Assembly: GCA_018302705.1 (NCBI GenBank)
Contig: JAGVZI010000012.1
Span: forward strand, 332-64,331
Length of the DNA: 64,000 bases
Source: Candidatus Woesearchaeota archaeon
GTDB lineage: Archaea > Nanobdellota > Nanobdellia > SCGC-AAA011-G17 > ARS1403
Reading direction: 5' to 3'
In this document: piece by piece, positions 23,117-55,190 of the stretch
Layout: each line of letters opens with the position of its first letter
Position numbering within the stretch: the stretch's first letter is position 1
Position numbers and translations under genes: made by a program
The notes under the pieces: generated by a model
What the model saw: the letters and a program-made list of their open reading frames with translations, nothing else
The model's database searches: none
What the model was told of the DNA's origin: nothing

Positions 23117-24420
23117 GTGAAAAAAGTTTTTGTGAAATATTTATAAAAATATCTGGGTCTTAAATAATAGCCAACAAGGGCTTTCTGCTGGTATCTCATT
23201 ATTTTTTCCTCGCTTAAGTTGGGGTGATCAAATATTACATGGAAATTGTCATATAGGTCATAATTCTCTGTTTTTATCCTGTCTTTTATCGCATCATAAA
23301 ATTCAGTTCCTGGAATGGGGGTGCCTATTGTGAAGTTGGCAAAATCAGTATTTAACTTTTTAGAATATTTTAAAGTAGCCTTGATAGTTTCTTCAGTGTC
23401 ATTCTCCAAACCGATTACATAGAATCCGACAACCTTCATTCCAATCTTGTCGCAATGCCTAATCATTTTTTCCTGATGCTCTAAAGCTATAGGAAGCCTT
23501 TTACTTTTCCTTAAAACTTCAAGGTCAGCAGATTCAATCCCAACCTTTATAACGCGAAATCCAGCTTTATACATCAAGTCCAATAAATTTTCATCAACCC
23601 TGTCAAGTCTTGTCTCGCAACCTAGCTCGATATCTATTTTTTCTTTAATTATTTGATTGCATAACTCTTCAGTCCTTTTCCTTATCAGAGTAAACATTGG
23701 GTCTCTAAACTGGGCGCCTTTAACATTAAATTTCTCTTTAAGATACTTCAGCTCCCCCATCACATTCTCCACGCTTCTCATCCTGTATTTGCTTCCTAAG
23801 TTAGATTCAGAAATATAAGGACAGTAATTGCATCCGTAAGTGCATCCCCTGCTAGACAAAATAAAAGTAAATGGTTTCTTTGTAATTATTGGCTCGTAAG
23901 AGAATTTCTCAATTGGAAAAAGATCCCAGTCAGGATAAGGTAGGCCATCTAGGTTAGAAACAGGAGAGCTAATTAATCCTTTAGGAATATCCCTTTTATC
24001 TATTATCCTTCCAAGTACGGTTTCGACATCACCCTTTATAATAAATTCCGCTTCCCCAAAAAGTTCAGGTTTCATTGCAGGAAAAGGTCCAACCATTCCA
24101 ACCTTGATTCCTTTCTCTTTCAGATTTTTTAAAGCTATTAATTCATTGCTATGATTTGGCATGCTACCGTGCATTACAACCAGGTCAGCATCATCAACAG
24201 AATTAGAAATAGAAACATCATGCCCGTTTTCTTTCATTATAGTCGCACCATATGCATATGGTATATATGGAAAATATTCTCTATTAGTTCTCAAACCAGT
24301 CAATAATCTTGCAAAAAACCCCCTACCAGCATTGAAGCTTGTTCCATATCCTCCATTGTAGTCTCTATAAATCTTTTTGTCAGATTTAACATCCAAAAAT
24401 ACAACTTTCATACATAGCAA
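23113..24420 (-). CDS. B12-binding radical SAM protein
   Basis: N-terminal B12-binding module; SSRGCTYGCNYCPY (CxxxCxxC). Confidence 0.8.
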   Translation of the reverse strand: MLCMKVVFLDVKSDKKIYRDYNGGYGTSFNAGRGFFARLLTGLRTNREYFPYIPYAYGATIMKENGHDVSISNSVDDADLVVMHGSMPNHSNELIALKNLKEKGIKVGMVGPFPAMKPELFGEAEFIIKGDVETVLGRIIDKRDIPKGLISSPVSNLDGLPYPDWDLFPIEKFSYEPIITKKPFTFILSSRGCTYGCNYCPYISESNLGSKYRMRSVENVMGELKYLKEKFNVKGAQFRDPMFTLIRKRTEELCNQIIKEKIDIELGCETRLDRVDENLLDLMYKAGFRVIKVGIESADLEVLRKSKRLPIALEHQEKMIRHCDKIGMKVVGFYVIGLENDTEETIKATLKYSKKLNTDFANFTIGTPIPGTEFYDAIKDRIKTENYDLYDNFHVIFDHPNLSEEKIMRYQQKALVGYYLRPRYFYKYFTKTFFT

Positions 24421-24463: not shown

Positions 24464-25010
24464 ATGCAACAGAAGATACTGGTGGGGTGCCCAACCTCAT
24501 TCCACAAAGAATACTGCTTGAAAGAATATGCTGAGGCAATTAATAAATTAACATATAAAAATCATGATGTTCTTTTAGTAGACAATTCTCCAGAAGGGGA
24601 TTATTCTGTAAAAATTAATGGGTTAGGTATGCCGACGGTAAAAGGCCCATATTTTGAGTCGGCAAGAGACTGCAAACAATATTATCCCGGGAGAGGTCTC
24701 TTCTAAATTAATTCCTTTAGTTTATGTTTTAGAGGATCAAAAAACAATTTCAATGAGGTCGTTAAATGAAGATGAGCTATGGAAAAATCAAGGTTTAATG
24801 CAGGTCATTTCAGCAGGACTCGGATGCATTCTTATCCACAAAAATATTTTAAAAAAAATTAAATTTCGATACGAACTGAATACATTTGATGACCGTTGGT
24901 TCTTCATGGATTTATACAATAAGAAGATTCCAGTATATGCAGATACTTCGATAAAATGCAAACATTTAATTTACAATCGGCCTTACCCATGGAGCAAGAT
25001 TAAAAAATGA
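24464..25010 (+). pseudogene. Degenerate, frameshifted member of the GT-A-like paralog family
   Basis: The N-terminus KILVGCPTSFHKEYCLKEY...LLVDNS and the C-terminus SAGLGCILIHKNIL...YADTSIKCKHLI are in different frames (ORFs 24464-24706 and 24654-25010); the middle has diverged. Confidence 0.55.
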
Positions 25011-25693
25011 AAAAGATTTTAGTAGGCTGCCCGACATCAAGCTATCATGAATATGCTTTGGAAGAATATGCAAGAGCAGTAAAGTCATTAACTTATCCTA
25101 ACTATGATATCTTATTAGTCGACAATTCTAAAGATGATTTGTATTTTAAAAAATTAAAGTTATTAAATTTGCCGACGATAAAAGGCCGATGGCATGAAGA
25201 AGCGAGAGAGAGAATTGTGGAGTCAAGAAATATCCTAAGGCAGAAAGTTATCGACGATGATTATGATTATTTTCTCTCATTGGAGCAGGATGTTATCCCC
25301 CCAAAAGATATAATAGAAAGGTTGTTGCAGCACAAGAAGCGCGTTATAAATGGAGTTTATTTCAATTATATAAATGCAAAGGAAGGAACAAGACTGGCTC
25401 CTGTAATATGGACAAAAGTAAATATGAAGAAAGAAGAAAGATATTTCCTGCATCCATCACAATTAAATAAAGGGCTGATGAAGATAGCCATTTCTGGAGT
25501 TGGCTGTATCTTGATACACAGATCGGTTTTGGAAAAAATAAAGTTCAGATATGAAAAACAATATCCATCATTCGATGATATCTTCTTCGGGTTGGATTGC
25601 AAGGAAAATAATATAGGCATTTATGCAGATACAAACATCGTTTGCAAGCATTTAATCAAAAACAGGCCTTGGAGCTGGAAAAATCTAAAATAA
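25007..25693 (+). CDS. GT-A-fold glycosyltransferase-like protein (paralog family, copy 2)
   Basis: KILVGCPTS...LLVDNS, LEQDVIPP (DxD-like), GVGCILIHRSVLEKIKFRY, DDIFFGLD, YADTNIVCKHLIKNRPWSW. Confidence 0.6.
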   Translation: MKKILVGCPTSSYHEYALEEYARAVKSLTYPNYDILLVDNSKDDLYFKKLKLLNLPTIKGRWHEEARERIVESRNILRQKVIDDDYDYFLSLEQDVIPPKDIIERLLQHKKRVINGVYFNYINAKEGTRLAPVIWTKVNMKKEERYFLHPSQLNKGLMKIAISGVGCILIHRSVLEKIKFRYEKQYPSFDDIFFGLDCKENNIGIYADTNIVCKHLIKNRPWSWKNLK

Positions 25694-25697
25694 AAAA

Positions 25698-26468
25698 ATG
25701 AAAAAAATTCTCGTCGGCAGTCCAGTAAATGAAATGTACGAATATTGCATTAAAGAATATACGGATGCAATCACATCCTTATCATATAAAAATTATGATA
25801 TCCTGCTAGTCGACAATTCAAAAACAGATGCATTCTATAAAAAATTAAAATCGATGAAAATAAAGGTAATTCGAGGGAAATACTTTGAAGAGCCAAGGGA
25901 TAGAATGATAGACGGCAGGAATATCCTAAGAGAGAAAGCAATAAATGAAAACTATGATTTTTTCATGAATATCGATCAGGACGTCATTCCTCCAAGAGAT
26001 ATAATCGAGCGCTTTTTGCAGCATAAGAAGCGCGTTATAACTGGCATTTACTTCAACTACAGGAAATTCACCCCGAGAAAATTAGGTTCAAAAGAAGGAG
26101 AAAGATACGGGGGTCTATTCCCCACTGTCTGGAGATTTACAAACAAAAAAGATGTAATTAGGCAGTTAAGGGAAGATGAATTAACCGGGCAGTTAGTTCA
26201 AATAGCTTCATCTGGTTCAGGCTGTTTGTTTATCCACAATTCAGTTCTAAAAAAAATAAATTTTCATTATTCAAAAGATAATGATAAACCTGAGAAAAAT
26301 TACTTTGTTTTTGATGACGCTTATTTCTGCAAAGACTTGATGGAATTAAAAATACCGGTATATGCAGACACATCAATGATATGCAGGCACTTAATAAAGG
26401 AGAAGGGTTGGACATGGTCAGATTATTATTCCAAAAATCAGAATAGAAAACAGAACAATAATATTTAA
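25698..26468 (+). CDS. GT-A-fold glycosyltransferase-like protein (paralog family, copy 3)
   Basis: Same conserved blocks: KILVGSPV, LLVDNSK, IDQDVIPP, GSGCLFIHNSVLKKINFHY, YADTSMICRHLIKEKGW. Confidence 0.6.
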   Translation: MKKILVGSPVNEMYEYCIKEYTDAITSLSYKNYDILLVDNSKTDAFYKKLKSMKIKVIRGKYFEEPRDRMIDGRNILREKAINENYDFFMNIDQDVIPPRDIIERFLQHKKRVITGIYFNYRKFTPRKLGSKEGERYGGLFPTVWRFTNKKDVIRQLREDELTGQLVQIASSGSGCLFIHNSVLKKINFHYSKDNDKPEKNYFVFDDAYFCKDLMELKIPVYADTSMICRHLIKEKGWTWSDYYSKNQNRKQNNNI

Positions 26469-26493
26469 ATACCTAATTCTCTTACTAAATAAT

Positions 26494-26748
26494 ATGCCAA
26501 AAGAAATACTAGTTGGAGAAGTAATTAGCTTTTACAGCCATATTGATGTAATAGCAATCCAGCTTTCAGCTCCGTTGAAAATAGGGGACAAAATTCATGT
26601 AAAAGGGGCTACAACAGACTTCACTCAGAAAGTAGATTCAATGCAAATAGAGCATAAAAAAGTTTTATCTGCAAAGAAAGGGGATTCTGTTGGAATTAAG
26701 ATAAAAGACAAGGCAAGAAAAAACGATAAGGTTTATAAAGCCGAATAA
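26494..26748 (+). CDS. Small beta-barrel protein (EF-Tu domain-2-like; hypothetical)
   Basis: 84 aa with alternating hydrophobic pattern and a GDKIHVKG motif. Confidence 0.3.
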   Translation: MPKEILVGEVISFYSHIDVIAIQLSAPLKIGDKIHVKGATTDFTQKVDSMQIEHKKVLSAKKGDSVGIKIKDKARKNDKVYKAE

Positions 26749-26838
26749 TCGCAGTCTTTTCAAGATAGGTCAGTGAAAGCTTGCCTATGCTGGATGTTTT
26801 CTGGTTTTGGTAAAGCTTTTTTTAAAAAATAAAGTAAA

Positions 26839-27294
26839 ATGGCAAGAATGCATTCAAGAAAGAAGGGTAAATCCTCAAGTAAAAAACCTTTAACTACTAG
26901 CAAGATTACCTGGCAGAGGTATGATAAAAATGAAATAGTGCAATTAATAATCAAGTTGGCCAAATCGCAAAAATCGCCGTCTCAAATAGGCATAACATTA
27001 AGAGATTCATACGGGATTCCAAATATCTCACAATTAACAGGGAAATCAATAACGCAGATATTATCAGAGGAGAAGCTGCTTCCAAAGCTCCCTGAGGATT
27101 TGCTGAGCTTAATAAAGAGGTATGTAAAGATAACAAAGCATTTGCAGTTGAATAAAAAAGACCAGCCATCAAAGAGGGGATTGCAGTTGACAGAGTCAAA
27201 GATAAAAAGGCTGGCAAAATATTATAAAAAGGCAGATAAAATCCCGGAAGATTGGAGATTCTCAAGAGAGCAAGCATCTCTTTTAATTGAATGA
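26839..27294 (+). CDS. rps15: Ribosomal protein S15 (uS15, archaeal S13e type)
   Basis: MARMHSRKKGKSSSKKP N-terminus and a C-terminal helical S15 fold; a TATA-like tttttaaaaaataaa lies about 25 nt upstream (leaderless). Confidence 0.9.
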   Translation: MARMHSRKKGKSSSKKPLTTSKITWQRYDKNEIVQLIIKLAKSQKSPSQIGITLRDSYGIPNISQLTGKSITQILSEEKLLPKLPEDLLSLIKRYVKITKHLQLNKKDQPSKRGLQLTESKIKRLAKYYKKADKIPEDWRFSREQASLLIE

Positions 27295-28658
27295 TGATGC
27301 AGTTGTTTCTTGAAAAGATAAGGCAGGAAGCTGAAAAATTAAAAGCATCTGATAGTCCTATAAGGGTAGTTTCTCATTTGGATGCAGATGGGCTATCCTC
27401 AGCAGCAATATTAACCAAGGCTTTAAAGAGGCTAAATAAAAAATTTGCATTGACGATTGTAAAGCAGCTTTCTCCAAATATATTATCTCAATTCAAGGCC
27501 GAATCTTATGAAACCTTTTTATTTGTTGATCTAGGCTCGGGGAATCTCGAGGATATAAAGGGGGTTATAAATGTTAAAAAAATTATCATACTAGATCACC
27601 ATCAGCCGCAGCAGATTGAAAACTCTTTTATTCATTTAAACCCGATATCATTCGGATTAGATGGCAACAGAGATGTTTCAGGAGCAGGCCTGGCTTATTT
27701 ATTTGCAAAATCCCTCGATGAGAAAAACAAAGATCTAGCTCCGCTAGCTTTAGTTGGTGCAATTGGAGACAATCAGGAGGATAAAGGGTTCTCTGGAATT
27801 AACAATCTTATCTTGGAGGATGCAAAGCCATATTTGGAAATAATCACCGGATTGAGAATGTTCGGAACTCAAACGAAGCCATTATCAAAAATATTGCAGT
27901 ACTCAACAGACCCTTACATACCAGGCATAACAGGGGACGAGCAGGCATCAAGAGAATTTTTACAAGAGCTAAATTTGGATCCGGAAAAAAAATTAATCCA
28001 TCTAGATCACGAGGAGATGAAAAAGCTAGTTACATTTATAATATTGCAGAGGCTTGGCTCGGAGGAAAACCCGGATGATGTCCTCGGCCCGATCTATCTC
28101 TTAAAATCAGAGCCGGAAGAATCGCCTACCAAGGATTTAAGGGAGTTCTCAACATTGTTGAATTCATGCGGCAGACTGAACAAGCCGTCATTGGGGATAG
28201 CAGCTTGCATGCAAGATAATAAGTTAAAACATGCAGCAATAAGTCTTTTGAATGAATATAAAAGGGAATTGATAGCATCATTAAACTGGTTTTACAATAG
28301 CAAGGAGAAAATAACAGAGCTAGAGGGATTGGTTATAATAAATGCAGAGGACAATGTAAAAGATACAATAATAGGGACTTTAACTTCAATGATAGCAAAA
28401 TCCAACCTCTATCAAGAGAACACCATCCTGATTTCATTAGCACATTCATTAGATGAAAATACAAAGATATCAATCCGCTGCTCAGGCTATAAAAACTCAG
28501 GTATTAATTTAAAAGAGGTCTTGAATTCAATAACCTCAAAGCTAGGGTGTCAGGCAGGCGGGCATAGAAATGCAGCAGGCGCTTTAATACCTCAGGAAAA
28601 AGAAGAGGAGTTTATCGAGCTGGCAAAGACCTTAAATGGGAAAACAATAATTTTATAA
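27291..28658 (+). CDS. DHH-family phosphoesterase (archaeal RecJ/GAN/Cdc45-like)
   Basis: VVSHLDADGLSSAAIL (DHH motif I), LDHHQP, and GGHRNAAG near the C-terminus. Confidence 0.75.
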   Translation: MMMQLFLEKIRQEAEKLKASDSPIRVVSHLDADGLSSAAILTKALKRLNKKFALTIVKQLSPNILSQFKAESYETFLFVDLGSGNLEDIKGVINVKKIIILDHHQPQQIENSFIHLNPISFGLDGNRDVSGAGLAYLFAKSLDEKNKDLAPLALVGAIGDNQEDKGFSGINNLILEDAKPYLEIITGLRMFGTQTKPLSKILQYSTDPYIPGITGDEQASREFLQELNLDPEKKLIHLDHEEMKKLVTFIILQRLGSEENPDDVLGPIYLLKSEPEESPTKDLREFSTLLNSCGRLNKPSLGIAACMQDNKLKHAAISLLNEYKRELIASLNWFYNSKEKITELEGLVIINAEDNVKDTIIGTLTSMIAKSNLYQENTILISLAHSLDENTKISIRCSGYKNSGINLKEVLNSITSKLGCQAGGHRNAAGALIPQEKEEEFIELAKTLNGKTIIL

Positions 28659-28682
28659 ACAAATTTTAGGCTTTAAAAAGGA

Positions 28683-29243
28683 ATGGCAAAGCAGGAAATA
28701 AAAGGAAAGAAAAAGCATTGGTATTCAATACTGCCGACATCAAATTTCAGAATACAGGAGATAGGCGAGACATTAACAGCAGATCCTTCCAGATTAATTG
28801 GAAAAACAGTTGCAGTGAATGGAATGGACCTAATGCGCGACCCAAAAAAGCAGAATATAAAGGTAACCTTCAGGATAACAGAGATTAAAGATAATAAGGC
28901 ATTGACAGAGATCAAGTCTTATCAAGTCCTGCCAAGCTCGATTAAAAGAATGGCGCATCAGGAAAAAGACAAGATAGATCATAGTTTTAAACTCGAAACA
29001 AAAGATAATATTGCAGTAGTAGCAAAGCCGGTCATTATCACAAGGGCAAAAACATCCCGGGCTGTTTTATCAAAAATAAGAAGGAACTCAGAGGAATTTT
29101 TAAGAGCAGCAATTAAAAGGCAGAGTTACCAAGAAGCAATTAATTCTTTATTGGAAGCAAAGCTGCAATCGCAATTGCGGGAGCATTTAAAAAAAATATA
29201 CCCGATTGCGGTCTGCCATATCAGAATATTCGAGAAGAGATAA
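28683..29243 (+). CDS. rps3ae: Ribosomal protein S3Ae (eS1)
   Basis: MAKQEIKGKKKHWYSILPTSNFRIQEIGETL is a typical S3Ae N-terminus. Confidence 0.9.
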   Translation: MAKQEIKGKKKHWYSILPTSNFRIQEIGETLTADPSRLIGKTVAVNGMDLMRDPKKQNIKVTFRITEIKDNKALTEIKSYQVLPSSIKRMAHQEKDKIDHSFKLETKDNIAVVAKPVIITRAKTSRAVLSKIRRNSEEFLRAAIKRQSYQEAINSLLEAKLQSQLREHLKKIYPIAVCHIRIFEKR

Positions 29244-29336
29244 TTATTTTTAAAGTAAATAACATGTTATTTTTTTATTGCCTCAATTGTCCATATGGCA
29301 GTAAGATTTATATACTATTAAAAGTCTTACTCTCTT

Positions 29337-30119
29337 ATGAGAATTAAATTTAAAAAAGGAAAACAGAGATGGTTAATGGAAAAAGCAATTAAAAAAGCTG
29401 GTTCAGAAAGAAAACTTAAAAAGATATTAAAAATACCTAATCAAACTGTAAATCACTATAGAACTGAATATGTTAATATCTCCAAAAAAAGACTTGATTT
29501 GATTATTAATTTCTTAGGAATAAAGATTAATGATGTAGATAAATTAATAGAAAAAAAATTAGATGAAAACTGGGGAAGACATAAAGGAGGTAGAGATCTT
29601 ATCCAAAAACATAAATCAAAAGGAACATATGAGATATATATTAAACATTTACAAAAAAGAGGGAAAATAATCTTTACCCAAATGCACAAAAACATGAAGA
29701 AAAAAGACCCGGAAAATTACTATAGAATACAATATGAAAAATTCAAAAAAGTAGGTCGATATAAATTTATCACAAAAAGAGGCGAGAAGGTTAGAAATAA
29801 ACTTGAAAAAGATACAGCAGATTTACTAAACTTTTTGAAATTAAAATACTCTTATGAGCCCTACATTGTTGCAAACAAAAGAGTTTATTTTCCTGATTTT
29901 AAGGTTGGGAAATTAATCTTAGAATGTACTGCATGGAGGGGATATTTAAAAGTTAGAAAATTAAAAAGAAAATTAAAAGATTTTGAAAAAGAGGGATTTA
30001 ATGTTAGATTTATAATTCCAGAAGATATAAAAAAGTTTTATAAACCGTTTGAAGATAAGATAATTACAGGTTTAAAAGAAGCCTCAGTAGCTCAGACTAT
30101 CCGAGGATTATCTCGATAG
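29337..30119 (+). CDS. HTH-containing protein with a C-terminal nuclease-like domain; its last ~13 codons overlap tRNA-Thr and are probably read-through
   Basis: ERKLKKILKIPNQTVNHYR helix-turn-helix; C-terminal YFPDFKVGKLILECTAW block; the ORF runs into the tRNA acceptor stem at 30081. Confidence 0.4.
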   Translation: MRIKFKKGKQRWLMEKAIKKAGSERKLKKILKIPNQTVNHYRTEYVNISKKRLDLIINFLGIKINDVDKLIEKKLDENWGRHKGGRDLIQKHKSKGTYEIYIKHLQKRGKIIFTQMHKNMKKKDPENYYRIQYEKFKKVGRYKFITKRGEKVRNKLEKDTADLLNFLKLKYSYEPYIVANKRVYFPDFKVGKLILECTAWRGYLKVRKLKRKLKDFEKEGFNVRFIIPEDIKKFYKPFEDKIITGLKEASVAQTIRGLSR

Positions 30120-30182
30120 GAGAGATGGTAGAGCAATTGCCTTGTAAGCAATAGGCCGGGGGTTCAAATCCCTCCTGAGGCT
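30081..30182 (+). tRNA. tRNA-Thr (anticodon UGU), 102 nt, with an apparent ~30-nt intron inside the D-loop
   Basis: Acceptor GCCTCAG/CTGAGGC, D-stem GCTC...GAGC with loop AG[ACTATCCGAGGATTATCTCGATAGGAGAGA]TGGTA, anticodon arm ATTGC-CTTGTAA-GCAAT, T-arm GGGGG-TTCAAAT-CCCTC; the inserted segment forms a hairpin CTATCCGAG/CTCGATAG. Confidence 0.6.
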
Positions 30183-30396
30183 TTATATAATGGATGTTCT
30201 TCAATAATCTTGTCAAAATATCTGCATCTCTTGCAGGCTCAACATTTCTAAAAGTCCTATAATCCTTAAAAATGAAGAAAAGTGATTTCATCATAAAACT
30301 TTTTTCAAAAATACAATTTAAATTATTTTATATTCTCAAGTTACATCATAAATCCTTCCAAAATCTTTTTATAACTGCCTATTTTAGAGATAATAA

Positions 30397-31110
30397 ATGA
30401 ATAACAAAACAACATTAGTAATTTTAGTTAGAGACGAGCTGGAGGCAATAAAGCAGCTCATTCCAAAAATATCGCTTAATTCTGTCGATGATGTAATTAT
30501 AATGGACGGCCAGTCAAAGGATGGAACAAGAGAGTTTTTACAAGAAAAAGGCTTCAAGGTTTTTACACAAAAAAAGCTAGGGAGGGGGAATGCTTTTTTA
30601 GAGTCTTTGGAGTATACTAGCAATGAAAATTTAATCTTCTTTTCAGGTGATGGGAATGAAAACTCAGAAGATATCCCTAAGATGAATCAATATTTGAAAG
30701 AGGGATATGATCTTGTAATTGGGGGGAGGTTTATTCTTGGTGGTTCAAAGAGCGATGATTCAGACGATCCTTTAAAAATAAGAAGATACGGAAATATAGC
30801 ATTCAGCAAAATAGTTGATACCATCTGGGGTAGCAATGTGAAAGACAGCATTAATGGATTTAGAGGGATGAAAAGAACCGCAATGGAAAGGATGAAATTG
30901 GATGCGCCAAAGCATGAAATTGAACTGCAAAGCACAATAAGGGCAGCAAAATTAAAATTAAAAATCAAGGAATTCCCAACAGCAGAGCAGGAAAGGCTTG
31001 GAGGGATAAGGAAAAACACTGCAGGAACTTCAATTTTAGCATACAGATTGAGCTTGTTTTTAATCAAAGAAATATTAATAGGGAAAAAATTTGCTGATGA
31101 AAAATCCTAA
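30397..31110 (+). CDS. Glycosyltransferase family 2 (small, soluble)
   Basis: LVILVRDELEAI...VIIMDGQSKDGT...GDGNENSEDI. Confidence 0.65.
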   Translation: MNNKTTLVILVRDELEAIKQLIPKISLNSVDDVIIMDGQSKDGTREFLQEKGFKVFTQKKLGRGNAFLESLEYTSNENLIFFSGDGNENSEDIPKMNQYLKEGYDLVIGGRFILGGSKSDDSDDPLKIRRYGNIAFSKIVDTIWGSNVKDSINGFRGMKRTAMERMKLDAPKHEIELQSTIRAAKLKLKIKEFPTAEQERLGGIRKNTAGTSILAYRLSLFLIKEILIGKKFADEKS

Positions 31111-31686
31111 AATCTTAGTCGGATGCCCAACCTCATTCCACAAAGAATACTGCTTGAAAGAATATGCTGAGGCAATTAATAAATTAACATATAAAAATCA
31201 CGATGTCCTTTTAGTAGACAATTCTCCAGAAGGGGATTATTCTGTAAAAATTAATGGGTTAGGTATGCCGACGGTAAAAGGCCCATATTTTGAGTCGGCA
31301 AGAGACCAAAAGATATAATAGAAAGGTTGTTGCAGCACAAGAAAGAAGTAATTACAGCAGTTTATTTTATGCCTCGAGGGAATACCCTAATACCCCTCTT
31401 GGCTATTAATGAAGGAAAAGAGAAATATGGCTATATCCCTTTTGAATACGTGGATAAGAGCAAGCATCTTATTCATGTGAATTATGCTGGCTTAGGAGTA
31501 ATATTAATCTCAAAAAAAGTTTTGGAAAAAATAAAGTTTAGGTTTGATGAAAAACCGGGCTTTGATGATTGGTTTTTTTGTAAGGATGCAGAAAGAGAAG
31601 GCTTTAAAATTTATGCTGATTTAGGGATAAAATGCAAGCACTTAATCAAAAACAGACCTTGGGATTGGAGTCAAATAAGACTATGA
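31091..31686 (+). pseudogene. GT-A-like paralog remnant with an internal deletion/frameshift; its 5' ~190 bp are nearly identical to 24470-24665
   Basis: KILVGCPTSFHKEYCLKEYAEAINKLTYKNHDVLLVDNSPEGDYSVKINGLGMPTVKGPYFESARD is the same as at 24464, then jumps to PKDIIERLLQHKKEV in another frame (ORFs 31091-31318 and 31327-31686). Confidence 0.55.
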
Positions 31687-32405
31687 TGCCTAAGGTTTTA
31701 GTAGGCAGCCCAGTATCTGACTTGTATGATTATTGCTTTGGGGAATTCGCAGACTCAAGAAAGTCTCTTACATACCCTAATTATGACCTATTTTTCATAG
31801 ATAACTCAAAACTAGAATCTTTCTCTAAGAAATTAAAGGATAATAACCTTCCTTTTACAAGAATAAAGTATTTGGAGAATGCTAGGGAAAGGATGGTAAG
31901 GAGCAGGAATCTATTAAGAGAGAAGACATTAAAAGAAGGATATGACTATTTTTTAAATCTAGATCAGGATATTATCCCTCCAAAAGATATAATAGAGAGG
32001 ATGCTTAAACACAATAAAACTATCCTTACCGGGGTTTATTTCGTCTATAACAGCCAATATTCAAACCAGCAAGCCAGCTACCTAATTCCTACCTTATGGG
32101 TTTCAGATATTGATTTTTCAAAAGCCAGTTTAGATGGGGCAAGTGTCAGATTAATGCACCCAAGAGAGTTAGAGGATAATAATGTTGTTAGAGTAGTATC
32201 TTGTGGCTCTGGCTGTCTTTTGATTCATAAATCAGCCTTGGAAAAAATAGAATTCCGCTATGATCCATTTTTTCCTTACTTTGACGACAATTGGTTCTGC
32301 AGGGATGCTTTTTACAATGGCTTTGACATCTTTGCTGATACATCAATAAAATGCAGGCATTTAATAAAGGAAAAGCCATGGAAATGGACAGAGCTAAAGA
32401 AGTAG
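31683..32405 (+). CDS. GT-A-fold glycosyltransferase-like protein (paralog family, copy 5; start at MMPKVLVG)
   Basis: KVLVGSPVSDLYDYCFGEF, FFIDNSK, LDQDIIPP, GSGCLLIHKSALEKIEFRY, FADTSIKCRHLIKEKPWKW. Confidence 0.6.
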   Translation: MMPKVLVGSPVSDLYDYCFGEFADSRKSLTYPNYDLFFIDNSKLESFSKKLKDNNLPFTRIKYLENARERMVRSRNLLREKTLKEGYDYFLNLDQDIIPPKDIIERMLKHNKTILTGVYFVYNSQYSNQQASYLIPTLWVSDIDFSKASLDGASVRLMHPRELEDNNVVRVVSCGSGCLLIHKSALEKIEFRYDPFFPYFDDNWFCRDAFYNGFDIFADTSIKCRHLIKEKPWKWTELKK

Positions 32406-32444
32406 CCAAAAGCTTTTTATTGGCATTTTATCTTAAAATCCTAA

Positions 32445-32517
32445 GGGTCCGTGGTCTAGTGGCTATGACGTCTCCTTGACGTGGAGGAATTCGGCAGTTC
32501 GAATCTGCCCGGACCCA
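32445..32517 (+). tRNA. tRNA-Val (anticodon GAC), intronless
   Basis: Acceptor GGGTCCG/CGGACCC, anticodon arm TCTCC-TTGACGT-GGAGG, T-arm GGCAG-TTCGAAT-CTGCC, discriminator A. Confidence 0.85.
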
Positions 32518-32617
32518 ATCATTTAGCCAATAAATAGCCAATAAATTGCTCTTAACTGGGTTTAAGGATATCTATGAGCTGTTTATAAAGCCCCTTAGCT
32601 ATTAGGCTCACCACAAG

Positions 32618-32630
32618 CTATATAAATAAA
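32618..32630 (+). promoter_or_regulatory. TATA-box-like element upstream of the S-layer gene, with SD GGAGGTG at 32683-32689
   Basis: ctatataaataaa about 65 nt upstream of ATG 32697, and GGAGGTG 7 nt upstream of the ATG. Confidence 0.4.
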
Positions 32631-32696
32631 CCAAGTCTTTAAACTCCCAATGAATAATACTCCCAAATTAATGGGACACATGGAGGTGTGTATTTA

Positions 32697-34955
32697 ATGA
32701 GAACTAAAAGAGTGTTGAGAAAAATAGCCGCTCTTTCTACCGGTGCAGCAATGCTTTCTGGGTCAATAACAGGGGCACTAGCACTGAGTTATACCTTAGC
32801 TGATTACCCAGCGCCATTTATTACAAATGGGGTGTTTTCTGGTGTTATAGCTGTAGGTCAAAATGCGGCAGCATCTGATACAATAGGTCAGGCTGTTTTA
32901 TTAGCTGATCTGCAAACAAAGGCTGTTTCTCCAGCAGGTGGAACAACAGTTACAGTAGCTGGAGGCATTTCTGAGGATATTCCACTTGGAGCGAATATTT
33001 CAGACTCGAATTCATATACAATGGATATTGAGTTAGCAGATGATGATATAGACAACTTGTTAGATGGAACAATCTCTTTTCAAGGCGCAGAATACGATGT
33101 AGAAGAGTTTATAGAAATAAATCAAGCAGGTAATGCTGTTTCAGCTGAAACTTCATTGACAAGTGCTGAAGATGATTATCAGACAGATGTTGTCTTGGAA
33201 GTAGCTAGAGATTCCATAAAATATTATTATGCATTCTCTGAGTCTATCCAAGTAAACATAACAACAAGCTCTGACCCATTAAACATAAAATTCTTGGGCA
33301 AGACTTTAAAGATTACAGACATTGACGACAACACTGAAGGCAAGTTTACAGCTTATGTGGGCTCAGAATACTTTCTGGATTCAGGAGACTCAGTAGTTGC
33401 AAGTGGAAAAACTGTAAAGTTAGTTAGAGTAGGCTCTGCAGGAGCCATAGTAGTAGATGTAGACGGAGTAACTGAGACACTTTCATCTAGTACGACTAAA
33501 ACAATAAATGGTATTGAGATTGTAAATGATGAAACATTCTACGACAGTAATAATCAGGCTGCATCATCCGCCAGTTTAATTATTGGTAAGGATGCCCAAG
33601 AAACCTACAAAGATGGGGATGCATTTGCTGGAGAGGACAAAGATAATCCAGATTGGGTATGGAATGTATCAAACATAAAAGAATCCACACTATCTACAAC
33701 AGCATCCACAACAGCAGAATTTACAGGTCCATTTTTTGGTATAGAAAATGATTTCATCTACAATGATGATTCAGACAACCCTCCAAAAGTAGGAGAATGT
33801 ATAGACCTGCCCAATAACTATGTAAGTATTTGCTTAGATAGCTTTACAGTATCAGACGACAATTATGCAACTTATACCTTAGAGTATGAAAGCTCAGCAG
33901 ATCTAAGTCAGGCAGTAGGAACATTATCAGCTGCTAAAAGCGTTCAGATTAGTACACCACAGTCTGAAGGCATAGTTATTAAGGGAAGTAATTTAGGTAG
34001 ATTTAATGGCACAGCAAAAGACATTAAAACAAACAAGGTTTGGTTGTATGCAACATCTGGTACAGGAAACTCTGTAAATCTTGGAGCAAATGGCTCAGAT
34101 ATTGGGGTCTTTTATAGGGATGTAGATGACAGTAAAGTCAAATTGGCTGGACAGATCATCAATGAAACATTAGGAGCAGGTTTAGCCAGGCCTTTGGAGA
34201 TAAACTATGACAATACAAAGGACACAGATATGCAGATATTCGTAGACCATACTTCGACAGATGTAGGCGAGCGAGTAAATGTAACGTTTGTACCCTATCA
34301 TAGTACAGATCTACCAGACTACAACGATAACATAACCGTAGATTGGGCATTAAGTAGTGGAACCTTTAATTCATTAGGAACAACTGCCTCATCAGAGGAA
34401 GCCATAGAATTGCTATGGACAGGAGCAGGAGCAGCAGCTGCACCAACTACAATAGGTACAAAAGATGAAGACCACAGAACAAGATATGGTATCATCATAA
34501 GAGATCCAAAAGCACACGGTAGTAGTGATGAAGTTGTATTGGACATTCCAGGAGATCAAGTGCAGGCAAATGTAGTCCTCAAAGGTACATCGACTAAAAC
34601 AACATCAACTGGTGGCTCTGTAGTAGTAAATCCAATTCCAAGTAGTGCAGCCGCTTTTTCAGAAGAAATTACAAGCGCAAGTGCCCAAAACTTGATCGTA
34701 GTAGGTGGTCCAGCAGTAAATCCATTGGCAAATAGCGTGTTTGGCTTGACAAGAAGCGACTTTACACCAAATGAAGCCATGGTTAAATTAGCTGACAATG
34801 GTGCAAATGTAGCATTGTTAGTGGCGGGTTATGAAGCTGTAGATACAAGAAATGCAGCTTTAGCAGTAGCCGCTGGCAAATTAGCTGGGTTGAGCAAGGC
34901 AGAAGCTAAAGTAGTTTCAACAACGCAAACAGTTGGAAGCTACACAGTAGAATAA
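32697..34955 (+). CDS. S-layer protein, Methanococcales type (S_layer_N/S_layer_C-like)
   Basis: Signal peptide MRTKRVLRKIAALSTGAAMLSGSITGALA; C-terminal NLIVVGGPAVNPLANSVFG...ALLVAGYEAVDTRNAALAVAAGKLAG block; Thr/Ser-rich with several N-x-S/T sequons. The listed start 32688 is GTG; ATG 32697 has a better SD. Confidence 0.75.
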   Translation: MRTKRVLRKIAALSTGAAMLSGSITGALALSYTLADYPAPFITNGVFSGVIAVGQNAAASDTIGQAVLLADLQTKAVSPAGGTTVTVAGGISEDIPLGANISDSNSYTMDIELADDDIDNLLDGTISFQGAEYDVEEFIEINQAGNAVSAETSLTSAEDDYQTDVVLEVARDSIKYYYAFSESIQVNITTSSDPLNIKFLGKTLKITDIDDNTEGKFTAYVGSEYFLDSGDSVVASGKTVKLVRVGSAGAIVVDVDGVTETLSSSTTKTINGIEIVNDETFYDSNNQAASSASLIIGKDAQETYKDGDAFAGEDKDNPDWVWNVSNIKESTLSTTASTTAEFTGPFFGIENDFIYNDDSDNPPKVGECIDLPNNYVSICLDSFTVSDDNYATYTLEYESSADLSQAVGTLSAAKSVQISTPQSEGIVIKGSNLGRFNGTAKDIKTNKVWLYATSGTGNSVNLGANGSDIGVFYRDVDDSKVKLAGQIINETLGAGLARPLEINYDNTKDTDMQIFVDHTSTDVGERVNVTFVPYHSTDLPDYNDNITVDWALSSGTFNSLGTTASSEEAIELLWTGAGAAAAPTTIGTKDEDHRTRYGIIIRDPKAHGSSDEVVLDIPGDQVQANVVLKGTSTKTTSTGGSVVVNPIPSSAAAFSEEITSASAQNLIVVGGPAVNPLANSVFGLTRSDFTPNEAMVKLADNGANVALLVAGYEAVDTRNAALAVAAGKLAGLSKAEAKVVSTTQTVGSYTVE

Positions 34956-34990
34956 AAAGGTTAAAACCTTTTTTTCTTTTTTCTTTTCGA
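34955..34990 (+). terminator. Hairpin plus oligo-T tract after the S-layer gene
   Basis: AAAAGGTT/AACCTTTT stem followed by TTTTTTTCTTTTTTCTTTT. Confidence 0.45.
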
Positions 34991-35025
34991 TTAAATTTTT
35001 AAACTAGGTTTTTTATCTATCCATA

Positions 35026-35820
35026 ATGAATCATCCTAGAGTTCTGGTAGGCTGTCCAGTATCCGAGTATCATAGCTATTGTACAAAGGATTATCTTTCT
35101 GCAATAACACATCTTACATATTCTAATTACAATGTCCTTCTAGTAGATAACTCAAAGACAAGCAGCTTTTTTAAGTTTCTAGAGAAACAAGGAATTAATG
35201 TAATAAAATCTAGGTACGACGAAAACCCGCGCGAAAGAATTATTAATTCAAGAAACTTATTAAGGCAGCATGCATTAGATAATAACTATGACTATTTGTT
35301 CTCATTAGAGCAGGATATTATCCCCCCAAAAGATGTTCTAGAAATCTTAACCTCGCATAAAAAAGATGTAATAAGCGGGGTTTACTGTGGCAACATTAAA
35401 GTAGGGGGTAAGTTAAGAATCCTTCCGCTAGTCTACAAATTCCCCCCAGAATCAAGGCTAGAAGAGGCAAAGCAAGTCATTAATGCCTCAAATCTAAAAG
35501 AATTAAAAGAAGAAACTGGCTCTTCATATCTGGAAATGGTTAAAGCATATTACACAATTGAGGAGCTGGAGAAAGAAAGCTCTCCAACCCTTGTGCATTC
35601 CTGCGGTTTAGGTTGTGTTCTTATAAGCAGAGCAGTACTAGAAAAAGTAACATTCAGATACTCAGAGAAATACGGTGGATGGGATGATGTCTGGTTTTGC
35701 GAGGATACTAAAAAATTGGGGTTCAAAATCTACATAGATCCAAAGATAAAATGCAGGCATTTAATCAAAAACAGACCTTGGAGTTGGAAGAGTCTTCTAA
35801 AATCGCAAAATCATAAGTAG
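35026..35820 (+). CDS. GT-A-fold glycosyltransferase-like protein (paralog family, copy 6)
   Basis: RVLVGCPVSEYHSYCTKDY, LLVDNSK, LEQDIIPP, SCGLGCVLISRAVLEKVTFRY, DDVWFCED, KIKCRHLIKNRPWSW. Confidence 0.6.
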   Translation: MNHPRVLVGCPVSEYHSYCTKDYLSAITHLTYSNYNVLLVDNSKTSSFFKFLEKQGINVIKSRYDENPRERIINSRNLLRQHALDNNYDYLFSLEQDIIPPKDVLEILTSHKKDVISGVYCGNIKVGGKLRILPLVYKFPPESRLEEAKQVINASNLKELKEETGSSYLEMVKAYYTIEELEKESSPTLVHSCGLGCVLISRAVLEKVTFRYSEKYGGWDDVWFCEDTKKLGFKIYIDPKIKCRHLIKNRPWSWKSLLKSQNHK

Positions 35821-36463: not shown

Positions 36464-38908
36464 TTATTTCCTTTTATTCACATAATAGCCGATTGCTACG
36501 ATGGCAACAATAACTATCAGTGTCCACCATAACCATGCCAAGCTTCTTCCAGCGACTGGTGTAACTTCTCTTTCTTCACGAGTTTCACCAGTTTCTGTAG
36601 TCTCTCTAGCTCGCTCTTCTTCTGCTTTAATCTTTGCAGCTCCTTCCTCTAACTTAGTTACAGTTACATCAGCTACACCATTAGCAACACCATTCAATTG
36701 AACCTTCATATCCTCTGTACCATCAGCATTTACATCAACAGATTTGCTCTGGCCAGCATTTAACTTAACAGTTATTGGGTCTGATGCTATCATTAATGTA
36801 ACGCTATTTGCAGTCACTTCATTGAATGTTATTGTGTGCTTTGTAACTCCATCAAAGCTAAAACTCTTTACTCTTCCCTGGCTTGCCTTGAATGTAGCTT
36901 GTGGAGATGTAGTAAAGTCAACATCAAAGCTTACTACAGCAGCTCCTCCACCTGCTCCCCCACCACCCGCTCCAGCAGATGAAATACTTACACTAAAGTC
37001 ATTTGAACCTGTTGTTTGAGTTTCATATTCATTATCTACAAAGTCAAATACTTTACACTTAACACCATAAGATCCTGTTGTTCCTATATCTAATCCACTA
37101 AAAGTTTTTTTGTTTGTCCCGCTAGTACTGCTCTCCTTATCGTAGATTTTCTCCACTCCGCCTGGTTTTATTAATGTCCATTGATAAGCCTCTACTCCGC
37201 TAGCACCATCGCCTCCAGTACATGTATACTCTATAGTATCAGCAGTTGTTATTCCTCTTGTTGCAGGTACACCCAATGTAGCAGTTGGAACTGTTCCATC
37301 AACCGTAATCAAGAATGGCCCTTCATATGTAGTATAATTATTAGGCAAATTCCCAGACAGTTTATAATCGGCACTGGCATTACCTAAAACTATGTAGAAC
37401 TGGAGAGTATTCCCGTCACTAGCATTAGCATCTATGGAGTATTCATAAGTACTTCTGGTATTTGATTGTTCATTTACCTCAAATACTGTACTTAAATTTG
37501 AAGTATTTAAGTCATTCTCCCCATCAAAGTTTGTTATGTTTAAGAGATATCCATTATTAATATTCATTGCACCAGTTAAATTATAGTAGAAGGTAATAGG
37601 TGTATTATTTCCTGGCTTCGTTGCTCCCAAAACATCAAATCTTATAGTCCAGTTAGTTGCAGATAGATAATCACTGCTTCCATCTGTATCACTACCACCA
37701 TTCCTAATATTTCCTCTAGCATCTTCAATAGTTATATTTGGAATATAAGGCAAGGTATCATTTATTGAAATACTAAATGGTTGGGCCCCAGCATTGGAAT
37801 CATTAATAGTTATTTCATTATTAAATGAATCATTCATAAGTATCATAAATGATAATGTCCTATTTCCACTACCTGTTCCAAAGCTTGTAAAGTTAGTATT
37901 CAGATGAGCAGCTGAAATAGTCCATACATACTTGATAGCATGAGTATAACTAGCATCAGCGGCAATTGAACCTATTGGACCTTGAGTAACAATAGGCCTA
38001 TTAATTCTAGTATTGCTTGTTAATAATAATTCTCCTAATTCTTCATTAGTTCCATTTATGAGGAGCCATGCCATATCCCCATCAACACTGCTGCTTACAT
38101 CGCTCGAATCATTTGCAGGATTCTGCTCATAGAATGTTGCTGTCACAACTAGATTAGATTGGTTGCTCAAAAATGTCATAAAATCATCATGAATAGTTCC
38201 ATTAAATGTCCCATTCTCCCAAGTAGTATTTCCATCTGAAATATTCAACTCGACTAATGTTGGAGCCCTACCATCAATATAAGTTGTAAGAGTTGTAGTA
38301 TTATCAACAGTAGCCGCATCATTAGAGCTAACATTAATAATAAAGTTAGATCTGTCTTCTCTATTACTAATTGCAGTTACATTGAAACGGATAATAATAG
38401 AAGTATTCTCAAGATTTAATGAACCAATAGCACTCGCATTATAACAATTTATTTGTGTAGCGCTTAGATTTAAGCATGTCCAATCTCCTATAGCCCCATT
38501 TACGATAGTAACATTAGAGAAAGTCACATTTTCAGTAGCAGCAACATCGCAATCAGCAACTGTTCCAGTATCTGCCATGCATGCAAAGCCTGAAGATTCA
38601 TTACCCGCTTGAACATCACCAATGCTCATCCATCCGCTAAAGCTATAATTTGCATCCCAAGAAACAGTAATATTAGTTATATTATTTCCAGTACCATATG
38701 TAACAGTCACATTAGCAATCTCGCTATCTCCTCCTTTAGTAGTATTCTCATATTCAATGCCAGCATATTCCCCGCCATATACGCTAATATTAGCGGATCT
38801 CAAAAGATCACTAGGACTATCATCCGAATCAACTATAGCATTACTAACAACCAAACCAATAAGAAGAAGAAAACCAAATAAAATAGACACACCTACTTTT
38901 TTATCCAT
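36464..38908 (-). CDS. Large surface glycoprotein: extremely sequon-rich, Gly-rich linker, Thr/Glu-rich stalk, C-terminal TM helix with basic tail (start at MDKK)
   Basis: More than 50 N-x-S/T sequons (NISVYGG, NVTVTYGTGNNITNITVSW, NGTN...), AGAGGGGAGGGA, ...ETTETGETREEREVTPVAGRSLAWLWWTLIVIVAIVAIGYYVNKRK; SD GGGGTG 8 nt upstream. Confidence 0.7.
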   Translation of the reverse strand: MDKKVGVSILFGFLLLIGLVVSNAIVDSDDSPSDLLRSANISVYGGEYAGIEYENTTKGGDSEIANVTVTYGTGNNITNITVSWDANYSFSGWMSIGDVQAGNESSGFACMADTGTVADCDVAATENVTFSNVTIVNGAIGDWTCLNLSATQINCYNASAIGSLNLENTSIIIRFNVTAISNREDRSNFIINVSSNDAATVDNTTTLTTYIDGRAPTLVELNISDGNTTWENGTFNGTIHDDFMTFLSNQSNLVVTATFYEQNPANDSSDVSSSVDGDMAWLLINGTNEELGELLLTSNTRINRPIVTQGPIGSIAADASYTHAIKYVWTISAAHLNTNFTSFGTGSGNRTLSFMILMNDSFNNEITINDSNAGAQPFSISINDTLPYIPNITIEDARGNIRNGGSDTDGSSDYLSATNWTIRFDVLGATKPGNNTPITFYYNLTGAMNINNGYLLNITNFDGENDLNTSNLSTVFEVNEQSNTRSTYEYSIDANASDGNTLQFYIVLGNASADYKLSGNLPNNYTTYEGPFLITVDGTVPTATLGVPATRGITTADTIEYTCTGGDGASGVEAYQWTLIKPGGVEKIYDKESSTSGTNKKTFSGLDIGTTGSYGVKCKVFDFVDNEYETQTTGSNDFSVSISSAGAGGGGAGGGAAVVSFDVDFTTSPQATFKASQGRVKSFSFDGVTKHTITFNEVTANSVTLMIASDPITVKLNAGQSKSVDVNADGTEDMKVQLNGVANGVADVTVTKLEEGAAKIKAEEERARETTETGETREEREVTPVAGRSLAWLWWTLIVIVAIVAIGYYVNKRK

Positions 38909-39126
38909 TAGATACACACCCCTTTGATTTATTTTTGATAAACTCAATATTATCAACCTCTTTGAATTACCAATATAAAATCATATCCCATATATAAAGC
39001 TTTCGTCAATGGTCGTATTAAGTTAAGTAATAGTAAATGACCCCCCTTATAATATTCTTTTTAGCTAAAAAGATAATTAGATGGGGTTAATAATCGGGTC
39101 TGTAGAAATCTTTATAATCCTTCATT

Positions 39127-39816: not shown

Positions 39817-39821
39817 TAATC

Positions 39822-42428: not shown

Positions 42429-42442
42429 GGTAATCATTTAAA

Positions 42443-49702: not shown

Positions 49703-49734
49703 TGAACCTCTATATAAAGGCTTTAGTAAACCTT

Positions 49735-55063: not shown

Positions 55064-55190
55064 ATTATTCAGTTTCAAAATAATTAATTTATCAAGAATA
55101 CAAATTCTTAAAACCTCAAAAATATTTGATAAATATGTAACAATTTTTGGGGAAGCTAAATTTTTAAATATATCTTTATTCAAATTAAAA

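Follow-up and report, generated by a model that had tools for sequence, protein, structure and literature searches.

Six homologous glycosyltransferase-like genes, A to F, are encoded in the 64,000-nucleotide stretch of Candidatus Woesearchaeota DNA analysed here (the window), which is part of an NCBI MAG contig (J4443_). Two of them, A and D, are broken in the deposited sequence. The question raised by the locus is whether these breaks record decay and renewal of glycosyltransferases beside a surface-layer gene, as proposed in a first-pass annotation, or have another origin. The explanation preferred as a whole, with a probability of roughly three in four, combines old and conserved GT-A paralogues, sequence losses specific to this contig, one A-to-D gene conversion and a role in the synthesis of a surface glycan.

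The paralogue array and its neighbours

All six genes are located on the plus strand and are of similar size, about 230–260 aa. Copy A (24464–25010) lacks 152 nt in the window, at 24670/24671, and is thereby broken; where intact, elsewhere, it encodes 232 aa. The start of copy B (25007–25693, 228 aa) shares 4 nt with the stop of A; copy C (25698–26468, 256 aa) follows. Copy D begins at 31091 or 31097, ends at 31686 and is broken by a loss of 91 nt at 31306; its intact product, seen elsewhere, is 226 aa long. Copy E (31683–32405) overlaps the stop of D; read from its ATG at 31683 it has 240 aa, and a longer ORF begins at 31632. Copy F (35026–35820) encodes 264 aa. Pairwise identity among the intact copies is 38–53%, with tblastn E-values of 1e-54 to 1e-75; no seventh copy was found by tblastn across the 64-kb window. 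The six homologous ORFs proposed in the first-pass annotation are thereby borne out, and the motif blocks described in them are real: residues invariant among 45 family members include G7, P9, D39-N40, Q94-D95 (preceded by E or D), G164, G166, D190-D191 and H215. Each protein is small and soluble, with a C-terminal half comprising the invariant His and a variable insert specific to the paralogue. No membrane segment, sought as a 19-residue stretch with mean hydropathy above 1.6, was detected in intact B, C, E and F.

The array is preceded on the minus strand by genes for an NAD-dependent sugar epimerase/reductase (22322–23116) and an HpnJ/BchE-like radical SAM enzyme (23113–24420), the latter divergent from A and kept as its neighbour across the genus. 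Copy C is followed on the plus strand by a gene for an 84-aa protein resembling EF-Tu domain 2 (26494–26748), which is also found 3' of the A–C block in relatives. Further genes on this strand encode ribosomal protein S15 (26839–27294; precomputed Pfam matches Ribosomal_S13_N and S15 on an identical gene), an archaeal RecJ-family nuclease of the DHH type (27291–28658; NF053576, NCBIfam RecJ_archaeal, 447.7 bits), ribosomal protein S3Ae (28683–29243; precomputed Pfam match on an identical gene), tRNA-Thr (TGT; 30110–30182; ARAGORN) and a classical GT2 enzyme resembling AglJ and dolichyl-phosphate hexose transferases (30397–31110). The last scores 106 bits against TIGR04182, below the equivalog cut-off, and its end overlaps the start of D. 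Between E and F are located tRNA-Val (GAC; 32445–32517, plus strand; ARAGORN) and the gene of a 755-aa S-layer-type surface protein (32688–34955, plus strand; Pfam S_layer_C, 30.6 bits versus a cut-off of 23.9). Beyond F, the minus strand encodes a surface protein of 830 aa (36464–38956) whose N-terminal part includes a hydrophobic segment. In relatives, homologues of each of the two surface proteins are adjacent as well. Bracketing of S15, the RecJ-like gene, S3Ae, two tRNAs and the S-layer gene by the array was thus described correctly.

Age of the array and integrity of copies A and D

The two lesions, a frameshift in A and an internal out-of-frame deletion in D, are present in this sequence as the annotation described them. 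In the window, A is devoid of about residues 70–120, and D of about residues 71–100, including the E-Q-D motif. They were taken as signs of true pseudogenes and of an ongoing birth-and-death process among the paralogues that could diversify the surface glycan. Lesions that shift the frame and remove the E-Q-D motif agree with such a process, as do copy numbers of 1 to 6 per locus in the wider lineage and the presence of three copies after the S-layer gene in one related genome. The process is nevertheless highly improbable here, given the state of both genes in other assemblies and in relatives.

Outside the lesions, ENA scaffold_2244 and the window are 100% identical, and the scaffold carries both genes intact (A, 232 aa; D, 226 aa). 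Contigs from JGI are 100.000% identical to the window over 6,636 nt and 11,100 nt. In a cluster look-up, the broken A and D fragments occurred on only one NCBI contig, intact A on 4 contigs and intact D on 2; exact-product look-ups with the truncated A and D fragments gave no match. A pseudogene would carry its disruption in the genome, beyond one assembly; the lesions that break A and D in the window are absent from independent, otherwise identical assemblies of the same population. Four more internal losses, of 55, 50, 78 and 26 nt, are located in the window contig at 6975, 12349, 13139 and 14393, respectively. All four fall in unique sequence, and at each site the window is contradicted by 3–5 mutually agreeing assemblies. 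Together with those in A and D, six losses occur in 25 kb of this contig, and the resulting fragments are annotated by NCBI as separate hypothetical proteins.

The lesions of A and D have a common left breakpoint, within a repeat that the two genes share, with microhomology of at most 1 nt. Both left breakpoints are situated 91 nt past the last SNP that discriminates A from D, an offset consistent with loss of copy-specific phasing by the assembler. A de Bruijn graph mechanism with a single k-mer was considered for the breakpoints and rejected: the right breakpoints fit no one k-mer size. A search for the deletion-junction pattern in JGI metagenome contigs gave 0 matches, a weak negative from a sparse collection, since the intact control matched one contig only, although other JGI contigs contain that sequence. 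From the comparison of assemblies, the damage in A and D is almost certainly due to assembly errors in the deposited contig. The different repeat arrangement that the annotation had named as a refutation is found in part: in better assemblies the copy number stands, but A and D are built differently inside.

Orthologues in genus-level relatives are intact and syntenic. All six occur in the same order in JACPIN and JACOZQ; CAYIWL contains intact A–C, also in the same order. The C-terminal halves form six orthologue groups, with identities of 66–84% within and 26–50% between groups. Judged from these sequences, the six-gene arrangement is old, and its paralogues are anciently diverged and syntenically conserved; their divergence is long past. 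The claim of ongoing birth-and-death is not upheld. Origin of the array by segmental duplication of ABC into DEF was also rejected: in the C-terminal tree, A clusters with (D,F) and B with C, so that the two triplets do not match gene for gene.

Gene conversion between A and D

The first ~190 bp of A and D had been reported as about 98% identical and attributed to recent duplication or gene conversion. Positions 24488–24670 of A and 31124–31306 of D differ at 2 of 183 nt (98.9% identity), with sharp edges. In intact assemblies the full tract is longer, 342 nt at 99.4% identity, and corresponds to nt 19–360 of A; it covers the N-terminal half of the gene and stops where homology among the paralogues ends. 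Portions of the tract kept in the window are 24482–24670 in A and, flanking the 91-nt loss, 31118–31368 in D (both on the plus strand). Other paralogue pairs are 68–76% identical, versus 99.4% in the tract. Assemblies from ENA and from JGI show the repeat in A as well as in D. The N-terminal half of D groups with A-type sequences, its C-terminal half with D orthologues. The tract is therefore sharply bounded, turns up in independent data and conflicts with the orthologue tree, and these alignments show that a single recent A-to-D gene conversion overwrote the N-terminal half of D. No comparable tract was found in relatives, in which the best within-genome paralogue identity is 79%. In bacterial surface-glycan loci, for example the lgt genes of Neisseria, neighbouring transferase paralogues recombine into hybrid genes. 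The present locus would resemble these mosaics in recombination between transferase paralogues; it differs in having one recent conversion in one species, with neither a homopolymer tract nor evidence of phase variation.

The repeat left by the A-to-D conversion is misassembled by several assemblers. Within the same repeat, A is shortened by 138 nt in assembly L012 and by 21 nt in P0125, and a boundary chimera occurs in L099. In L016 and L019, the 5' part of A is joined to the 3' part of D. At least 12 contigs start inside the A/D repeat, and two more end there. Such diversity might instead indicate that the 342-bp repeat truly is prone to recombination and deletion in the organism, producing on/off or chimeric transferase variants and heterogeneity resembling phase variation: five versions of gene A exist among the assemblies, all differing only within the repeat or at its edge, and the A of the window carries two SNPs within the repeat that are absent from other assemblies. 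This alternative is considered very unlikely. The A5'–D3' chimeras would delete S15, RecJ, S3Ae and tRNA-Thr and would not be viable as the main genotype; termination of many contigs inside the repeat is typical for short-read graphs; and small losses occur outside repeats too, both in the window contig and in another assembly. Equally slight is the chance that A, B and D repeatedly swap their N-terminal, nucleotide-sugar-binding halves and keep their own C-terminal, acceptor halves, in which case conversion in this small-genome archaeon would re-pair donors with acceptors and the lesions and chimeras would partly reflect real, recombination-driven population heterogeneity in surface-glycan synthesis.

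Contig-specific losses beside one conversion remain the preferred account. If the damage in A and D is artefactual, the locus is ordinary. Signals of pseudogenes or birth-and-death on MAG contigs can stem from sequence lost at scaffold joins; repeats longer than the k-mer size of the assembler are a second source of false pseudogene signals in MAGs.

Fold, family membership and proposed role

The annotation regarded the proteins as small GT-A glycosyltransferases of a possibly uncharacterised family, and both parts of this view are supported. The AF2 model of copy B (pLDDT 93.7, pTM 0.92) shows the architecture of GT-A enzymes, one Rossmann-like alpha/beta/alpha domain built around a mixed beta-sheet. 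Its [E/D]-Q-D motif follows strand 88–92, in agreement with the acidic DxD-type metal/nucleotide-binding motif expected after the fourth strand. All 50 listed Foldseek PDB matches are GT-A enzymes with probability 1.00, those at the top being Mimivirus R699, ColGalT1, Mnn9, LH3, SpsA, TarP and A197. Against Pfam Anp1 (PF03452; gathering score 28.8 bits), E (36.4) and F (29.6) score above the threshold, and A (26.0), B (25.1), C (27.6) and D (26.9) below it; the match spans only profile positions ~113–176 of 263 (about 55 positions). Against Pfam Glycos_transf_2 (PF00535; gathering score 23.3 bits), C (32.3) and B (24.4) score above, E (21.4) and F (18.2) below, and A and D give no match. The scores for both Pfam models are marginal and differ from copy to copy. 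The sole NCBIfam match of the paralogues is rhamnosyltransferase TIGR01556, at 23–27 bits versus a cut-off of 200 bits. Fold and profile comparisons support the assignment of A–F to a small GT-A glycosyltransferase family that has no dedicated curated model. About 1,570 matches to the family were found, and all named ones belong to Woesearchaeota/Nanoarchaeia or unclassified archaeal MAGs. The same holds for 78 genome loci, save three titled uncultured Methanosarcinales. Full-text literature searches returned no paper on the A–F family or locus.

Among known enzymes, yeast Mnn9/Anp1 (GT62, PF03452; PDB 3zf8) is close in several respects. It has the GT-A fold, gives the top query-normalised TM-score (0.73) among the 50 listed PDB matches and is the only significant match in a profile search of PDB sequences (E = 8.5e-4), in which the E-Q-D motif is placed opposite its N-A-D and the invariant His opposite its C-terminal His. 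Mnn9 itself is anchored in the Golgi as a type II membrane protein and synthesises alpha-1,6-mannan as part of a heteromeric complex, whereas the archaeal proteins are about 230 aa long, soluble and predicted to be cytoplasmic; identity in the structural alignment is 17%, and the Anp1 match is partial, with A–D below the cut-off. The best Foldseek E-values, 1e-13 to 1e-10, are given by collagen glycosyltransferases that share the GT-A core (Mimivirus R699, human ColGalT1 of GT25 and the GT domain of LH3). For R699, activity as a UDP-sugar transferase has been characterised (PMC9546862, PMC12279948). Collagen glycosyltransferases are far larger, multi-domain or dimeric, only 12–21% identical to the archaeal proteins and directed at hydroxylysine of collagen; no collagen-like substrate occurs in the context of A–F. 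Similar in size and minimal GT-A architecture are A197 of STIV (PDB 2c0n), found by both sequence and fold searches, and the glycosyltransferases of Klosneuvirus and Orpheovirus (BFVD matches with TM up to 0.80–0.82). These small viral and archaeal enzymes, of uncharacterised specificity, are 16–26% identical to the paralogues and differ in genomic context.

The Agl GT2 enzymes of archaea (AglJ, AglG, AglI, AglE) are soluble or peripheral GT-A proteins adding sugars stepwise onto dolichol-phosphate for S-layer glycoproteins. The same role is proposed for A–F, and an AglJ-like gene lies within the array; unlike the Agl enzymes, the paralogues (B, C, E and F) match no Agl NCBIfam model, and their GT2 Pfam scores are marginal. 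From fold and neighbourhood, the likely role is cytoplasmic assembly of a glycan for surface glycoproteins. The six enzymes would work in the cytoplasm as metal-dependent transferases, the N-terminal half ending in [E/D]-Q-D binding the nucleotide sugar, and each may use a different sugar or a different acceptor during building of a lipid-linked glycan. Their partners in the same 64-kb glycan island would be the AglJ-like GT2, the epimerases and the radical SAM enzymes, and the finished glycan would be transferred to the neighbouring S-layer-type protein and to the 830-aa surface protein. What is proposed for donor, acceptor, stereochemistry and a link with N-glycosylation is drawn from fold and neighbourhood.

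The window is rich in glycan-synthesis genes, and what the paralogues help to build could be other than protein-linked, for instance a glycolipid of the membrane or a polymer of secondary cell-wall or capsule-like type. The window encodes a heptose-nucleotide pathway together with three GT9 heptosyltransferase-like proteins, as well as one LPG_synthase_TM protein and two PMT_2/ArnT-like GT-C enzymes; an AglB/STT3 gene was not found in its 64 kb, and the S-layer-type protein shows no sequon enrichment (8 versus 8.5 expected). With these features a different product has some probability, though distinctly less than a glycoprotein glycan. Against it, in 42 of 78 loci of other genomes a family member has a homologue of the S-layer-type or the 830-aa protein no more than 5 kb away, and the AglJ-like dolichyl-phosphate hexose transferase gene overlaps the start of D. 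The 830-aa protein is strongly enriched in N-x-S/T sequons (37 versus 15.8 expected) and is a likely, predicted target of glycosylation.

In the preferred reading, the family to which A–F belong is large, consists of small GT-A enzymes, has no curated model and is often encoded beside S-layer-type genes. The conversion, limited to the N-terminal half, is a small and tidy case of modular glycosyltransferase evolution. Glycans of DPANN archaea are, to our knowledge, little studied, and the family is a reasonable entry point to the surface glycosylation of these organisms.

The six paralogues, their family and fold

Six homologous genes, all on the + strand, are confirmed by ORF listing, protein alignment, self-BLASTN and tBLASTN over the window. 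Copy A (24464-25010) is present there as two overlapping ORF fragments and copy D (31091/31097-31686) as two fragments; copies B (25007-25693, 228 aa), C (25698-26468, 256 aa), E (31683-32405, 240 aa) and F (35026-35820, 264 aa) are intact. Intact copies share 38–53% identity pairwise and match one another in tBLASTN at E = 1e-54 to 1e-75. No seventh family copy was found in the 64-kb window by tBLASTN. The motifs described in the first-pass annotation are real; residues invariant in a 45-member alignment include G7, P9, D39-N40, R69, R74-N75, Y86-D87, Q94-D95, G164, G166, D190-D191, H215 and W224. As had been noted, genes for S15, a DHH protein (archaeal RecJ, 447.7 bits) and S3Ae lie between copies, and tRNA-Thr and tRNA-Val are found where they had been placed. 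A 755-aa protein exceeds the Pfam S_layer_C threshold (30.6 bits vs 23.9). Start-stop overlaps at A/B, GT2/D and D/E suggest co-expression. Spacers flanking S3Ae vary. In the window's species S3Ae is followed by a gene for a 260-aa protein of weak HTH similarity (29337-30119), and the end of this ORF overlaps the tRNA-Thr start; in a relative (L001, 13713-14774) a RelA_SpoT-domain gene instead separates RecJ from S3Ae, and S3Ae is followed by a methyltransferase-GT2 fusion.

An annotated protein of a Candidatus Woesearchaeota MAG is identical to copy B. A profile built from the four intact copies matches 1,568 proteins at E <= 1e-3, all named ones from Woesearchaeota or Nanoarchaeota. With one genome scanned per species, 168 family loci were confirmed; the 78 retained are, by record title, Woesearchaeota, Nanoarchaeota/Nanoarchaeia and unclassified archaeal MAGs, except for three uncultured Methanosarcinales. 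No curated family in Pfam or NCBIfam fits the copies. Pfam matches to Anp1 (GT62) and Glycos_transf_2 are marginal and inconsistent between copies, and the sole NCBIfam match is a rhamnosyltransferase model (23–27 bits vs a 200-bit cut-off). The proposed GT-A-like membership is supported by structure prediction and by a profile match in the PDB. The AlphaFold2 model of copy B, made with the 45-member alignment as input, is confident (pLDDT 93.7, pTM 0.92). Its top Foldseek matches in the PDB are all GT-A glycosyltransferases: Mimivirus R699, human ColGalT1, yeast Mnn9, LH3, SpsA, TarP and STIV A197. Mnn9 has the highest TMq among the matches listed (0.73) and is found at E = 8.5e-4 in the profile search of PDB sequences, where the family [E/D]-Q-D motif and invariant C-terminal His align with the corresponding Mnn9 positions. 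Small giant-virus glycosyltransferases reach TM 0.80–0.82 to the same model. Maximum 19-residue hydropathy of copies B, C, E and F is <= 1.6, i.e. they have no hydrophobic segment, and they are read as soluble cytoplasmic enzymes.

Copies A and D in independent assemblies

Copies A and D had been taken as decayed. Both are intact in assemblies made independently from the same groundwater population, recovered among many contigs by exact look-up of the B and E proteins. The broken fragments (NCBI proteins MBS3151226.1, MBS3151237.1 and MBS3151238.1, J4443_ locus tags) occur on one contig only, of 64,510 bp, which is the source of the window. ENA scaffold_2244 (44.6 kb), identical to the window outside the lesions, carries A intact at 232 aa and D intact at 226 aa. 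The window's A lacks nt 208-359 (152 nt) and its D about nt 211-301 (91 nt); each loss falls entirely within a 342-nt tract common to A and D, and the two have a common left breakpoint and <=1 nt of microhomology. On either side of the D lesion, JGI contigs match the window at 100.000% over 6,636 nt and 11,100 nt. Four contigs carry intact A, with a near-identical version from JGI besides; two carry intact D, and one of these is 93,992 bp long.

Other contigs are also irregular here. A is short by 138 nt in one (L012) and by 21 nt in the 93,992-bp contig (protein P0125), another (L099) is a chimera at the repeat boundary, and at least 12 begin within the A/D repeat, with two more ending there. 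Two ENA contigs (L016, 2350-3027; L019, 1086-1763; protein P0127) have the 5' part of A fused to the 3' half of D, followed by E. This join would remove 6.6 kb with S15, RecJ, S3Ae and tRNA-Thr and almost certainly arose where an assembler jumped the 342-bp repeat. At window 24573 and 24579, in copy A within the tract, T replaces C; shown by no other assembly, these differences are either a minor strain variant or further assembly error.

Four further losses are found in the window: 55 nt at 6975, which leaves a 517-aa B12-binding radical SAM gene as two overlapping ORFs, 6514-7086 and 6947-8011; 50 nt at 12349; 78 nt at 13139/13140, within a GT9-like gene (363–366 aa in other assemblies); and 26 nt at 14393. 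All are in unique sequence, and at each site 3–5 independent assemblies concur against the window. Between 43 and 64 kb the window agrees with another assembly without any difference. Six losses in a single contig, of which four have nothing to do with a repeat, point to sequence lost at scaffold joins rather than to mutation, with a probability of roughly 0.8. The JGI contig Ga0208375_1010469 has its own 38-nt loss (at ~4492, vs window 49717-49756), so small assembly-specific deletions are not peculiar to the NCBI contig. The apparent decay of A and D is best explained by defects of this deposited contig.

Gene conversion and age of the array

The near-identical stretch reported earlier is borne out: in the window, A 24488-24670 matches D 31124-31306 at all but 2 of 183 nt, and the edges of the match are abrupt. 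In intact assemblies the common tract extends to 342 nt, A nt 19-360 against D nt 22-363, and contains 2 mismatches (99.4% identity). The recent conversion proposed from the shorter stretch is real. All other within-genome paralogue pairs have 68–79% nucleotide identity, and the near-identical tract occurs in the window's species only. In their N-terminal halves C, E and F keep their orthologue groups and D does not: it is identical to A in the window's species, and groups with A-type sequences in JACPIN and B-type sequences in JACOZQ, both genus-level relatives. The tract is 74–79% identical to A orthologues vs 61–69% to D orthologues, which indicates conversion from A to D. Its 5' edge is just past the start codon, where upstream homology ends, and its 3' edge is at the conserved V-Y-F strand, beyond which the paralogues carry an unalignable variable insert; the tract thus occupies the entire homologous block. 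Mapped on the copy B model, the block corresponds to the Rossmann-like subdomain up to and including the E-Q-D motif and the strand that follows it. In GT-A enzymes the N-terminal half binds the nucleotide-sugar, and the shape of the acceptor site depends on the C-terminal half. Since the converted block is the nucleotide-sugar-binding half, A and D probably use the same donor and different acceptors.

JACPIN and JACOZQ have all six orthologues intact in the same order, with the S15/RecJ/S3Ae block inside; a third genus-level relative, CAYIWL, has A-C orthologues intact in the same order. Protein identity to these genomes is 68–83%. Trees of C-terminal halves give six clean orthologue groups (66–84% identity within, 26–50% between). 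More distant Nanoarchaeota (L036, L040, L051) still have one A-type and one C-type copy, upstream of an EF-Tu-D2-like gene, S15, RecJ and S3Ae. Among 99 sequences screened (the window, 20 same-population contigs and 78 genome loci), most loci, taken at up to 20 kb, hold 1–3 copies and only those of the window's genus 5–6; in one relative, three copies follow the S-layer gene. The six-gene array is old and stable. Copy number varies between species, over long times, and the variation is not ongoing in this genome, contrary to the proposed birth-and-death process. Of the first-pass annotation, the sequence, the GT-A-like family and the recent conversion stand; the dynamic locus with two decaying copies probably does not.

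Glycan genes of the window and likely role

The 64-kb window is rich in glycan-synthesis genes. Pfam matches identify three GT9 (heptosyltransferase-like) genes (2407-3543, 12969-13991, 55029-56024), a PfkB-kinase/cupin fusion (14393-15724) and a cytidylyltransferase/HAD-phosphatase fusion (15711-16760); together these resemble a nucleotide-heptose pathway (HldE/GmhB-like), probably unusual in an archaeon. Also present are one GT4 gene, four further classical GT2 genes (10490-11416, 30397-31110, which is AglJ-like, 47120-48070, 54122-55063), two PMT_2 GT-C proteins, four epimerases/dehydratases and a polysaccharide deacetylase. Radical SAM genes are at 6514-8011 (split in the window), 23113-24420, 50522-51964, 56374-57450, 57410-58906 and 60789-62207. 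Four of these have a Pfam B12-binding domain match, the split one included (five genes in the tally for the whole window), one is of SPASM type, and 23113-24420 has B12-type NCBIfam matches only. Their unusual concentration, with two methyltransferases nearby (49735-50496, 58907-59545), suggests that the sugars are heavily modified and possibly C-methylated. A gene for a Y1 (IS200-type) transposase (~63570-64000, - strand) continues past the right edge of the window and an RVT_1 reverse-transcriptase-domain gene lies just past the left end in other assemblies (L100/L101, 688-1230), so mobile elements flank the glycan island.

An 830-aa surface protein (36464-38956, - strand) has an N-terminal hydrophobic segment, a Gly/Ala-rich linker and 37 N-x-S/T sequons vs 15.8 expected from composition; the S-layer-type protein is without sequon enrichment. 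Homologues of the 830-aa protein adjoin the GT family in many Woesearchaeota loci, and 42 of the 78 loci in other genomes have a family member <=5 kb from a homologue of one or the other protein. An AglB gene was not found in the window. A DUF4956 protein, an 868-aa protein (CotH match on an identical gene) and a VTC-domain protein at 39127-43147 are also kept beside surface-protein genes in a related genome (L002, 14017-17968) and may be linked to polyphosphate or surface kinase functions.

In sum, the locus holds six conserved paralogues, members of an unnamed GT-A family of archaea, beside surface-protein genes and with one recent half-gene conversion. A glycolipid or wall polymer is a serious alternative as the product. 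On gene context, the best reading is that the paralogues would build a lipid-linked glycan stepwise in the cytoplasm, destined for surface glycoproteins.
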